In this document: piece after piece, positions 54,001 to 64,000 of the stretch | Layout: every line of letters begins with the position of its first letter | Position numbering within the stretch: the first letter of the stretch is position 1 | NCBI RefSeq assembly: GCF_013167455.1 | Contig: NZ_CP038328.1 | Strand: one strand, 5' to 3' | Length of the DNA stretch: 64,000 nucleotides | From: Escherichia coli O157:H7 | Lineage (GTDB): Bacteria > Pseudomonadota > Gammaproteobacteria > Enterobacterales > Enterobacteriaceae | Program-made: the position numbers

Positions 54001-57000
54001 ATCAAAATACGCTTTCCTGACGATCTGATAATTATCAGCTCAATACATTTGACATAAAAGCGGTTTCTTAATTACTACTGCTACGATCACATATCAAATC
54101 ATGATCGTACAATATACATTTTCACTATTATTTATTCACAATTTGAGACATCACATAATCCGCCCATGCCTGCATCATCGGTACACGCTGCTCCAGTAGA
54201 TCAGTACGATGATATGCCGCCTCAACCTTATTTTTCAGCGTATGAGCGAGCGCCCTTTCCGCCAGATCCCGCGAATACCCCTGTTCGCTACACCAGTCCC
54301 TGAATGTTGAGCGAAAACCATGTGCCGTGGCAACTCGCCCCGGAATGTCACTGACGGCTTTCTTTTTACGCAGAAAACTTGTCAACACCATATCGGAAAG
54401 GATCTGCTGCTTTCTGGGTGAAGGGAACACCAGTTCATCATGCAGGCCACGTATATTTTCCAGAATGTAAATAGCCTGCCGGGATAAAGGAACACGATGC
54501 TGTATCCTGGCTTTCATTCTTTCTGCAGGTATAGTCCATACCCGCTTATGAAAATCAATTTCAGCCCAGCGCATTCCCCTGGCTTCGCCCGAGCGAGTTG
54601 CTGTAAGTATCACCATTAATAACAGTGCGCGGGTAACATTATAAGGTTCATCGGTATACACACTGGTCGCCACAAAAAGCGGTAACTGCCTCCAGGGCAT
54701 TGCGGGTTGGTGTTCATCACGTCCTCTTGTCTGCTGAGGAAGCAAATGGTCAACCACATCAACAGGATTTGCTACACAAAAACCGTGCGCCCATCCCCAC
54801 TGCATAACAACATGAATGCGCTGTTTAACCCGGCTTGCCGTTTCTGACAAGGTTAACCAGACTGGACGCAGTGTTTCTGCCACGTCCGCAGCCGTAATCG
54901 AATCCAGCGTTTTTGCTCCCAGTTGAGGAAACGCGTAATTCTCAAGCGTCGATAACCACTGCCTTACATGCTTTGGATTTTCCCATCCAGGAGACAGTTC
55001 TGCATGTACACGCCTGGCTGCATCGGCAAATGTTGGGATAGCGACTTTCTCAGATTCAGCCTTTTTAATCTCCAGAGGATCATCACCTGCAGCAAGTTGC
55101 TCTCGCATTATCCGGGCAGTACGTGCAGCTTCAGCAATACTGACCTCTGGGTAAGTTCCCAATCCAGCATTACGTCTTTTTTGTGTCACCGGACTTACAT
55201 AACGAAAAACCCATTTCCCCCGCCCCTTTACTGAAGAAGGATGAAGGGTCAGTCCGGTAATTCCCCCATGGGGCAATGGTTTGTCATCAGGTTTGATATG
55301 TCTTGCTTTCGTATCCGTCAATACTGCCATACGCTAATTCCCGTCACTCTGGTATGCCATCCAGTATGCCATTAGTCTCTCGCTTCACTAAGAATACATT
55401 AGATAATATCGGACAACAAAAAGTGTAATACATTGTTTATAATGAAATTATATAACACCCCTGGATTAAGTCAGATTTATTTCAGGCGGTCCCCCTCACC
55501 GCCATATTTAAAGAAGAGCTCGTACGAAAGTACGGGCTTTTTTTTCGTATATTGCACACACCGGGTGCCCCCGCCCACGTCTGTTTGGGCGAGGGGAAAT
55601 CGTGCACATCAACTGTCTGGTTGCTCAGTCAACAATCAAAATGCGCAAGAGAGTACAGAACATATATGTATTATCTGGTCACTTCCTATCACTTCCTCAC
55701 TTATTAAAATGCCCCCAACGGAAATACATGTCACATGCCATCATAAAATCGTTATGCCAGAGGAATCGACAATAGAAAAAATAGTAAATTAAGCACGGTA
55801 CATAGCAGAGTAAAAAATAGGCTTCAAACCAAATCCGCCATTCCACAAGCGTTGCCAATACCGACACCAGCGTAATCCACATCACTTCAATAACCAGCAA
55901 TATGAATAACCGAAGCCAAAGCGGCTTGGCAAAAAAGGTCGACAATGCATTTTCACTGGAGAAAAAGAGATCGATTTCCTGCAAAAAAAGCCTGCCCAAA
56001 AAAGCGTACCGCCTGGAGAAGCGCAGAAAAAACAGATTAATCGCCAACACTACGCCACAAAGAATGAGCAATGCAATTATCGATTTAAACGTTAACCACT
56101 GCCCCTCTATCACAAAAGAATCACTGTTACGCAACGGGCTGATAGTAAGCAGGTTAACAACCGTTGAGATGCACACCGAAAGCAGCACATAGCGAGTCAG
56201 ACTTTTATATTTTACTTTTTTCGCTACTGAAATAGCGACCTGCTTGACATAACTGGTGCGGATCATCCGAAACAGCAGAAAGATAACCAACGGCCCAAGT
56301 AACGAAATCAGGAACAGCGCATATAACGAGGGTAGACGCTGGTATAGCCCCCAACTCATTGCACTCAACATGATTAACGACAGAAATCCTGCCACCAGAG
56401 GTTGCGTAAGAAATAATTCTATTTTGTGGTTCTGCTTTTTCTTAAACCACGAAAAATCGATATTCTTCGTGACGCATTTATAAGCCCAGTACGCCTTGAG
56501 ATCAAAAATAAAATTATACAGCACCAGGGCCAGAATCCCACTAACGACACCAATATCCTCTGATGGAAAAGTAAATCCTGCATTTTTCCAATAAAAGCCT
56601 ATCAGAATAAGTCCAATAGCATAAATGTATATCAGACTTCGTTTATCCTGAAAGCGAATAAAAGTTAAATAATCAGGAATCATTTGAATACCTTCGCATC
56701 ACTAAATGCTTTACGACAATGCATAACTCGTTGCTGATCCACGCCAGCGAAATCGTTGAACATATTCCCCAAATAGGGCTTATTACTTATTTCAAGGAAA
56801 GCTACCGAGGTTGGCATATTCAGAAATGTATCGAGAGATTCAGTCCATTTCACCGTATGAGTTAAGTGTAATGAGAGATTTTCTTTGATAATTGACGGAG
56901 CGACCTCGCTTTTTGCTGTTACGTTCATCAGAACCTGATGCTCTGGCGAAGCGATATCCAGTCCGGCAAGATAATCGCGCATTGCCTGAACGCCGTCTTC

Positions 57001-63000: not shown

Positions 63001-64000
63001 TCTTGCAAGTCGGTTCCGTTATCGAAAACTTCTTAAGTAAATTCTTGGGAAGCGTATCAATAGTGGCGATATGCAGCGCACTGGAAATTTTTTCAAACGA
63101 ACCGGATTCGCCCCAGGAATCGGCATAAATAAATGCCGTGCGCGATTTCATTAACTTCATGCGTTCTTTAGTCGGCATTTGTTGTAATGCAGAATCGGTC
63201 ACCTGCTCCATCGCCTCAAGGTAAGGCATATATTGTGGATTACGGATCCGTTCTGGTGCATAAATATCGTTCTCCACGCCAAAGCGCTTCAGTCCCCAGC
63301 CATTAGCACGGGTGCCGTATAATCCCCTTTCGTACATATGTGCTTCCCAGGCGTTGAGCCAGGTCGGCTGATAAAAATAAAAAATGTCGTCCGGTTCCGT
63401 AAGCGCCCAGGAAGACAGGTAGATACTCTTTTCCGTCATTTCGCGCGCCCCGCTTGCATATTTGTCATGACAACGCCAATAACTGAACCATCGACACCCA
63501 CACCAACCTTCAGCAAATGGCGTTTGCTATGGTTTGTCACGCTGCCGTCCGTAAGTACCAGCGAAGCCATGCTGTCGATAATGACGTCGTTGCCAACAGG
63601 TGCGATCAGTTGATGATGCGTCAACGAATGGTGGCCAATGATCAGATCGACAACACCAGATCCGGTTGCGGTATAGCCGATCTGCCCTTTATAGGCGAGA
63701 ACGGGGATCTGTCGCTCCCCTGCGAACATGGCGATGGCTTTGGCCTCCGCGTTATCGCTCACTGCCGAACCGTTGCCGTGTGGAAGAATGGCTGCAAGAT
63801 CATCCAGCGCAATTTCAGCCTGCTTCATCGCGGCCTGCATGACCTTGTGCACGTTAGTGCTAAGCCAGGAGGCATCGTTGCTGCGGCCCGCGCTGATTTG
63901 GGTGTAAGTCGTTTGCACCCTTACGCCCTCACTTTGTTGACGCGCCCGGCGGTGATGAGCGCTTTCCAGTAGGAGCGCGCTAAAACCTTCTGCGAACGCC

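Follow-up and report, generated by a model that had tools for sequence, protein, structure and literature searches.

To which pathway do the genes beside ycdU belong, and is ycdU itself part of it? In a stretch of 64,000 nucleotides of Escherichia coli O157:H7 DNA (contig NZ_CP038328.1 of assembly GCF_013167455.1; hereafter, the window), this gene adjoins a row of minus-strand genes that fills positions 55697-64000. We found these genes to be the promoter-distal half of a 17-gene unit of ∼20.3 kb, which runs from otpA to ycdU inside O-island 47 (OI-47), or from 55697 to ∼76026 when the window numbering is extended. Shown directly are its gene content and order, the intact catalytic motifs of its enzymes, its conservation across genera, purifying selection, and the junctions of the deletion that removed most of it from K-12. 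It probably encodes a self-contained lipid-building line that resembles type II fatty acid synthases and polyketide synthases (FAS/PKS), together with its own route to the outer membrane.

A 17-gene unit from otpA to ycdU

The initial annotation had recognized at least eight co-oriented minus-strand genes. Listing of the open reading frames (ORFs) between 52000 and 64000 returned eight complete ORFs and one cut by the window end, all densely packed within 55697-64000 and separated by gaps of −17 to +13 bp. Chromosomes of E. coli O157:H7 contain this segment at 100% identity, with the same genes annotated by RefSeq. The genes are listed here from the promoter-distal end (ACP, acyl carrier protein; AF2, AlphaFold 2).

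55697..56683, minus strand: ycdU, all-helical polytopic membrane protein; terminal operon gene, with a 4-bp overlap of the fabD-like stop
56680..57621, minus strand: fabD-like malonyl-CoA:ACP transacylase (Acyl_transf_1, E=1.5e-24), GHSVG intact
57635..59023, minus strand: 462-aa putative outer-membrane protein; N-terminal signal peptide and C-terminal GFKYYL, by inspection
59020..59808, minus strand: LolA_like periplasmic lipid/lipoprotein carrier-like protein (PF17131, E=6.7e-36); signal peptide by inspection
59817..61127, minus strand: FtsX/MacB-type ABC permease with a periplasmic core domain (FtsX, E=3.2e-17; MacB_PCD, E=4.2e-9)
61128..61784, minus strand: 218-aa cluster-specific protein with a signal peptide; invariably encoded between the ATPase and permease genes
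61768..62475, minus strand: LolD/MacB-like ABC transporter ATPase (ABC_tran, E=9.7e-36)
62486..63439, minus strand: 317-aa cluster-specific protein with a predicted thiolase/KASIII fold (AF2 model and Foldseek)
63436..64000, cut by the window end, minus strand: 3′ part of a 407-aa ketosynthase (KS)-family gene (ketoacyl-synt, E=4.5e-13; Ketoacyl-synt_C, E=5.8e-12; full protein of the O157 record)

Pfam and NCBIfam bore out four of the labels first given to these genes (FabD-like acyltransferase, LolA_like protein, FtsX/MacB_PCD permease, and ABC ATPase), and a Pfam scan of the full protein likewise assigned the edge-cut gene to the ketosynthase family, as proposed. The original gene list omitted the 218-aa and 317-aa proteins, neither of which has a Pfam match. 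No convincing promoter or terminator emerged from scans of the window segment; shuffled sequence contained more promoter-like sites than the segment itself, and the excess of terminator-like sites over shuffled sequence was only modest (17 versus 10.5; SD, 3.6).

The bounds first drawn around the cluster proved too narrow, as it extends upstream as far as the OtpA/OtpB genes, ∼12 kb beyond the window end. Outward from the window edge lie the rest of the 407-aa KS-family gene, a gene for an 852-aa KS-KS fusion, a GcvT-family aminomethyltransferase-like gene, and an ACP gene, followed in the O157 record by those of a FabZ-like dehydratase (DH), a FabG-like ketoreductase (KR), acpS, a ShlB/FhaC-type transporter (OtpB), and a 1270-aa protein with a two-partner secretion (TPS) domain (OtpA). 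The complete order is otpA, otpB, acpS, KR, DH, ACP, gcvT-like, a fusion of KS with a chain-length factor-like half (KS-CLF), KS-like, KASIII-like, ABC ATPase, periplasmic protein, FtsX/MacB permease, LolA_like, outer-membrane protein, fabD-like, and ycdU, with all 16 intergenic gaps falling within −17 to +88 bp.

On contigs retrieved through homologues of the GcvT-like protein, Klebsiella oxytoca and Acinetobacter sp. ANC 4558 have all 17 genes in an unchanged order. The genes flanking the unit vary by genus, and we therefore take it to span tpsA to ycdU. We then used a 317-aa protein profile to survey species-representative genomes, one for each species, which identified 32 loci, and searched these by tblastn with the 17 O157 proteins. 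Ordered hits to all 17 were obtained in 21 of the 32 loci, and most of the remaining ones end at a contig or flank limit. The genera, about a dozen of Enterobacterales plus Acinetobacter, are Enterobacter, Mixta, Izhakiella, Rahnella, Buttiauxella, Kosakonia, Serratia, Tenebrionibacter, Silvania, Leclercia, Pantoea, Klebsiella, and Acinetobacter. A more distant version, in Proteus mirabilis, keeps a TpsA gene immediately before acpS and ends in a gene with weak similarity to ycdU (E=2e-7). A rearranged version was seen on one metagenomic contig (11466-20653), where a distant cluster adjoins lpxD-fabZ-lpxA-lpxB-rnhB and the bamA-skp envelope-biogenesis genes; there, acpS comes after the ycdU-like gene and a DUF6134 protein is present. 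The literature searched contained no definition of the 17-gene unit including otpAB and ycdU, the O157 genes themselves having been annotated since the genome was published.

Comparison of the 17 genes between O157 and a chicken commensal strain (YZMc3-1, described below) counted 221 synonymous and 62 non-synonymous changes and no stop codons, i.e., a synonymous proportion (pS) of 0.048 and a ratio of non-synonymous to synonymous proportions (pN/pS) of 0.084. The operon genes are thus under purifying selection. This low ratio and the gene order shared with other genera speak against chance ORFs. With every ORF intact and a pN/pS of 0.08, we rejected the idea of a pseudogenized relic.

The synthase enzymes

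The unit contains the parts of a dissociated type II FAS/PKS, namely, a discrete ACP, its own AcpS, a malonyl transferase, a condensing enzyme with a Cys-His-His site, a KR, and a DH. The ACP has a PP-binding domain with the DSV motif that bears the phosphopantetheine-attachment Ser, and AcpS matches ACPS at E=1.4e-18. The reductase matches FabG (E=6.9e-71) and keeps its YSASK (YxxxK) motif, as does the FabZ-like dehydratase its HFPEDPIMPG (HFxxxPxxPG) motif. The FabD-like protein hits TIGR00128 (fabD) at E=1.8e-52, under the equivalog cut-off. In the KS fusion, the N-terminal half matches FabF (E=5.4e-136) with the Cys-His-His triad as ACT...HGTGT...GH, and the C-terminal half resembles a chain-length factor, since both Cys and His are missing. 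Across the family of the 407-aa KS-like protein there is no invariant Cys, S161-N162-S163, H294, and N296 are invariant, and the second catalytic His is replaced by Tyr (Y329). The GcvT-like protein (GCV_T, E=7.3e-33; GCV_T_C, E=8.3e-8; short of the GcvT equivalog cut-offs) can be aligned along its entire length with the Thermotoga maritima T-protein and has Asp at the second Asp of its "DD" motif. Domain scans of the 17 proteins detected no enoyl reductase, thioesterase, or adenylating enzyme; one Pfam match named after enoyl reductase (adh_short_C2) lies in the FabG-like reductase, and for that protein NCBIfam ranks 3-oxoacyl-ACP reductases highest. A polyunsaturated fatty acid synthase was considered and rejected, as the system is not multidomain.

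A Lol/MacB-like export route

The window part of the unit encodes an FtsX permease, which has a periplasmic core domain, along with its cognate ATPase. As in LolCDE-LolA and MacB-type (type VII) exporters, these are a LolD-like ATPase and a permease with a MacB core domain, accompanied by a LolA_like protein. The best NCBIfam match of the ATPase is LolD (E=7.8e-68; score, 228 versus a cut-off of 308), and the permease matches LolC/E TIGR02212 at E=1.9e-26 (score, 92.9 versus a cut-off of 362). With scores far under the NCBIfam equivalog cut-offs, the exporter proteins are not equivalent to the housekeeping LolC, LolD, and LolE. The arrangement also differs from LolCDE in having a single permease gene instead of LolC plus LolE, and two additional envelope proteins that are specific to the cluster. 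The lipid made by the cluster itself is the presumed cargo. A comparable pairing is found in the heterocyst glycolipid synthase and DevBCA, where a MacB-type ABC exporter is encoded alongside the enzymes for a PKS/FAS-like lipid. The O157 ATPase matches the DevA family at E=2.3e-55, a generic hit below the cut-off, and unlike DevBCA the cluster encodes no DevB-type membrane-fusion protein. Heterocyst glycolipid synthesis relies on multidomain synthases and a glycosyltransferase.

The 462-aa protein is kept in every complete locus and has no Pfam, NCBIfam, or PDB sequence match, even with profiles. It has a signal peptide and an aromatic-rich C terminus and is a putative outer-membrane protein, as first labeled, that may form a β-barrel. 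Similarly, the O157 218-aa protein has no family match in Pfam or NCBIfam and no meaningful PDB sequence relative, even with profiles, and its Proteus homologue shows weak TPR matches below threshold; it is probably a periplasmic accessory of the exporter.

These export genes bear on whether the enzymes could simply be a secondary fatty acid synthase, making unusual acyl chains for the cell's own envelope lipids instead of an exported metabolite. All of the enzymes are indeed FAS II paralogues, as the FabF and FabG matches indicate, and the distant metagenomic variant does lie next to lpxD-fabZ-lpxA-lpxB. However, the dedicated ABC, LolA_like, and outer-membrane genes are conserved with the synthase; a CLF-like domain, a KS without Cys, and a GcvT-like enzyme are foreign to housekeeping FAS; and most E. 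coli strains live without the cluster. We therefore regard a purely domestic role as unlikely and favor a lipid destined for export.

The cluster is distinct from the aryl-polyene locus

It had been suggested that the genes might be aryl-polyene (APE)-like, i.e., that an aryl starter is extended to a polyene pigment anchored in the outer membrane. The genuine ape cluster of E. coli CFT073 (c1186-c1204) offers a direct comparison. Both systems are dissociated and type II FAS/PKS-like, combining a KS and its CLF-like partner with KR, DH, and an ACP of their own. An enoyl reductase is encoded in neither, and both have a LolA-type component suggestive of outer-membrane delivery. Both also occupy the dgcT-serX neighborhood of E. 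coli. This shared general logic, along with the weak or faint ApeI-like Pfam hits that precomputed annotations place on the dehydratase of homologues, is what speaks for a pigment. Beyond it the two clusters diverge. No adenylation (AMP-binding; the starter ligase), thioesterase, MMPL, DUF3261, LPLAT, or GT2 domain, all hallmarks of ape, and no methyltransferase domain was detected in any of the 17 O157 proteins. BLASTP of these against the 18 Ape proteins yielded hits for KS, KR, and ACP only, at 23-33% identity, the KS-CLF fusion being 31-33% identical to ApeO and ApeR with no hit to ApeC. There were zero hits to ApeA-D, G-N, and P, including the ligase ApeH, the thioesterase ApeK, the acyltransferase ApeD, and the glycosyltransferase ApeJ, and BLASTP similarity to the ape export set ApeM (MMPL), ApeL (LolA), and ApeN (DUF3261) was likewise absent from the O157 cluster. 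Conversely, this cluster has an ABC/FtsX exporter, extra AcpS, FabD, GcvT-like, and KASIII-fold proteins, YcdU, and the two-partner secretion pair. Finally, the true ape cluster sits on a different element: it is carried by a serX-type integrase island, which in CFT073 comes directly after dgcT, and ycdU and the fabD-like gene are absent there. An APE pigment is consequently a very improbable product, and the APE-like assignment does not hold.

YcdU and the KASIII-fold protein

The initial annotation had set the cluster next to a ycdU-like gene; cross-genus gene order places ycdU instead as the conserved terminal gene of the cluster. Orthologues right after the fabD-like gene were found in K. 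oxytoca (41% identity), Acinetobacter (38%), and ∼24 other loci, those of the first two species being 328 or 333 aa long (E=3e-83 and 3e-90). A profile search of 1.84 billion representative proteins recovered only 75 clusters of this family, and the two most distant full-length members checked are encoded immediately 3′ of a fabD-like gene in like clusters with a rearranged gene order. A family this rare, whose distant members still follow the fabD-like gene, indicates that YcdU is a dedicated component of the cluster system, and the family would be confined to clusters of this type. The AF2 model of YcdU has a pLDDT (AF2 confidence score) of 88, for which no solved structural relative was found, and Pfam and NCBIfam returned no match above threshold and one spurious match below it.

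The 317-aa protein also lacks any Pfam or NCBIfam match. Its AF2 model (pLDDT, 82) adopts a thiolase/KASIII fold, with Foldseek matches to DpsC, ChlB3, OleA, PqsBC, and FabH (E ∼1e-11, TM ∼0.55). The 131 database clusters that match this protein are all from cluster-bearing taxa, and within the family C145 and C216 are invariant, with no invariant His. The KASIII-fold relatives and this residue pattern suggest a role in acyl transfer or as a partner protein, and not in decarboxylative condensation.

OtpA and OtpB are linked to the lipid genes

OtpA has a TPS domain (E=3e-41), and OtpB matches ShlB (E=1.5e-67) with POTRA_2 and POTRA_3; both are encoded past the end of the window. Experiments have shown that OtpA is secreted through OtpB (Choi et al. 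2007, as cited in PMC5422565). Where it discusses the pair, the literature citing Choi et al. 2007 assigns it no function and proposes a link to the upstream fimbrial locus. However, the loci of K. oxytoca and Acinetobacter lack the fimbrial genes, and cross-genus synteny ties otpAB to the downstream lipid genes through ycdU, not to fimbriae. Relatives of OtpB are few (270 at E≤1e-30) and occur on the same contigs as the GcvT-like and 317-aa proteins of the cluster. This tight linkage across genera suggests a surface function shared by OtpA/OtpB and the lipid genes. OtpA is 1270 aa long in E. coli (O157 record 36915-40727), and its cluster-linked counterparts in K. oxytoca, Acinetobacter, and Proteus have 838-885 aa, leaving ∼400 extra residues in the E. 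coli protein. Literature searches for two-partner secretion with a ketosynthase retrieved nothing related, and those for an O157 O-island with polyketide or fatty acid biosynthesis retrieved no papers.

The linkage invites the view that the acyl-ACP chain is no free lipid but would be attached covalently to OtpA, in the manner of RTX toxin activation by HlyC, making OtpA a toxin or adhesin that bears lipid. All complete main-clade loci have tpsA and tpsB directly upstream of acpS, as is TpsA in the Proteus variant; the KASIII-fold protein resembles the acyltransferases ChlB3, CerJ, and DpsC; and release by acyl transfer would be plausible because a thioesterase is absent. Nevertheless, no HlyC-type acyltransferase is encoded, and a full Lol/MacB-like export route would be needless for acylating a protein in the cytoplasm. 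Moreover, TPS-less variants retain synthase and exporter, and we know of no report of a covalently acylated TpsA protein. Covalent acylation of OtpA in place of a free lipid product thus seems unlikely. A broader scheme, which we would still rate as rather unlikely, joins OtpA/OtpB and the lipid line in one machine. A specialized lipid would be loaded onto, or covalently attached to, a β-helical OtpA at the cell surface, with YcdU, as founding member of a new membrane-protein family, doing the hand-over, and with the GcvT-like protein performing a folate-dependent step on a carrier-bound intermediate. If true, this would disclose a new kind of two-partner secretion cargo and give a K-12 orphan gene a biochemical role.

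A model for lipid assembly and export

The reading we prefer, and consider probable from gene content and homology, is that of a self-contained type II FAS/PKS-like line building a lipid that is sent to the outer membrane by a Lol/MacB-like route and may work with OtpA/OtpB. The dedicated AcpS would activate the dedicated ACP, and the FabD-like enzyme would load malonyl units. The chain would then be built by the KS-CLF fusion, which holds the sole canonical Cys-His-His condensing site, together with the FabG-like reductase and the FabZ-like dehydratase. With neither an enoyl reductase nor a thioesterase in the cluster, an unsaturated or hydroxylated chain is likely unless the host FabI joins in. 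Priming, tailoring, or hand-off of the chain probably falls to the Cys-less KS-like protein, the KASIII-fold protein, and the GcvT-family folate-type enzyme. Export across the envelope would involve the ABC ATPase and FtsX/MacB permease, the periplasmic accessory, the LolA_like carrier, and the outer-membrane protein, with YcdU probably providing the membrane step that hands over or anchors the product. OtpA and OtpB, co-inherited with the pathway, probably act with the exported lipid at the cell surface.

Several observations weigh against this model. The tblastn scan of the Proteus variant did not find the LolA_like and outer-membrane genes. Entomohabitans and Serratia silvae keep the synthase and exporter (and, in S. 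silvae, the YcdU-like gene) without the secretion pair upstream, and such TPS-less variants mean that the pathway is not strictly dependent on OtpA/OtpB. The roles proposed for the outer-membrane protein, the periplasmic protein, and YcdU derive solely from position and topology. The host FabI could reduce the chain, in which case the product would be an ordinary saturated acyl chain. Lastly, our literature search found no precedent for a GcvT-like enzyme in a ketosynthase/ACP cluster.

K-12 retains the stump of the operon

The initial annotation described the K-12 locus as reduced to ymdE and ycdU remnants, so that the window might hold the intact ancestral cluster, and called for comparison to ymdE-ycdU-serX. 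That synteny is real. The K-12 order is dgcT-IS3D-ymdE (303 bp)-ycdU-serX-ghrA, in which ymdE is the 3′ remnant of the fabD-like gene, and ycdU plus this 3′ end are 98.6% identical in nucleotide sequence to their O157 counterparts. Homology breaks at positions 21724 and 53465 of the O157 record, so that 31,741 bp are missing from K-12. Since this gap matches the published OI-47 (z1528-z1556; 31,727 bp), the segment missing from K-12 between ycdT (dgcT) and ymdE-ycdU is OI-47, and with it went the other 15 genes of the operon and the remainder of the island, which also encodes GrvA. Strain LR-25 has the order dgcT-IS3-fabD′ (528 bp)-ycdU. K-12 and LR-25 share an identical dgcT-side break relative to O157, abutted by IS3, and differ in the end point within the fabD-like gene, which also abuts IS3 (O157 record 21724 in K-12 and 21909 in LR-25). 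One shared break with two end points is as expected of IS3-associated nested deletions. K-12 and O157 ycdU differ by 10 synonymous and 4 non-synonymous changes, with no decay seen in a test of low power.

Of 5426 complete E. coli genomes, 390 carry the 12.9-kb region that runs from the 462-aa gene to acpS, 303 of them at ≥99% identity and 87 at 95-99%; one of the 390 matches sits on a record classed as a plasmid. The chicken commensal YZMc3-1 has the whole OI-47 (its 16063-48856) at the same dgcT...ycdU-serX locus, with an intact serX beside it and the integrase island absent. The whole OI-47 was also observed at 98-99% identity in strains other than enterohemorrhagic E. coli (EHEC) from chicken, baboon, and human, and in an O158:H23 strain. 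Reviews restrict OI-47 to O157:H7, O55:H7, and O145:H28, an exclusivity that is too narrow.

That published restriction, the mobility of the module between genera with differing flanks, and the small number of carriers would all accommodate a recently acquired, EHEC-specific island, in which case ymdE and ycdU of K-12 would be unrelated leftovers. Against this stand the 87 carriers of just 95-99% identity, which include non-EHEC commensals with the whole OI-47 in the same place next to an intact serX. The pS of 0.048 is about the divergence expected between E. coli lineages. In addition, most E. coli keep a truncated fabD-like gene beside IS3, which is derivable solely from an intact gene. Recent acquisition is accordingly quite improbable. 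The same locus in a commensal and the core-like pS argue instead for an old resident cluster with IS3-associated loss from most lineages, which upholds the idea of an intact ancestral cluster and fits the behavior of an old, selected resident of the species.

The adjoining integrase island

On its ycdU side, the operon meets an integrase island at a junction marked by one feature:

55491..55565, plus strand: 75-nt repeat unit from the region downstream of serX, matching tRNA-Ser/RtT annotations elsewhere

K-12 has four copies of this repeat, with a 181-bp period, downstream of serX. ARAGORN found no intact tRNA in 50000-64000, and the 75-nt unit amounts to one repeat copy, so the island apparently integrated inside the repeat region. 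It encodes a tyrosine recombinase (54128-55330) and an AT-rich 605-aa ORF (52124-53941; 31-33% GC), and further left an insertion sequence remnant (IS1), an HTH gene, YfjI, and a Gp2-like gene. The CFT073 serX island that bears the genuine ape cluster starts with the same gene set. The O157 island also contains IS66, IS600, and IS30 fragments, traT, and genes for a phosphoethanolamine transferase and a diacylglycerol kinase, as well as a gene whose product is, in the RefSeq annotation, a "TOTE conflict system archaeo-eukaryotic primase domain" protein (window ∼44789-47149; O157 record 9490-11850).

Implications

OI-47 cannot be regarded as restricted to EHEC, and its distribution needs correction. 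OtpA/OtpB is now connected with a pathway for lipid synthesis and export in place of the neighboring fimbriae. More broadly, the 17 genes define a widespread uncharacterized cluster of Enterobacter, Klebsiella, Kosakonia, Pantoea, Mixta, Rahnella, Acinetobacter, and others, many of them gut or plant associated, with an unusual enzyme set that combines a GcvT-like enzyme, a Cys-less KS, and a KASIII-fold protein. An earlier population study flagged ymdE and ycdU without a functional explanation. These two orphan genes of K-12 now gain a pathway context as the stump of a 17-gene operon, and K-12, which is without everything except ycdU, is a natural clean host in which the pathway can be tested directly.

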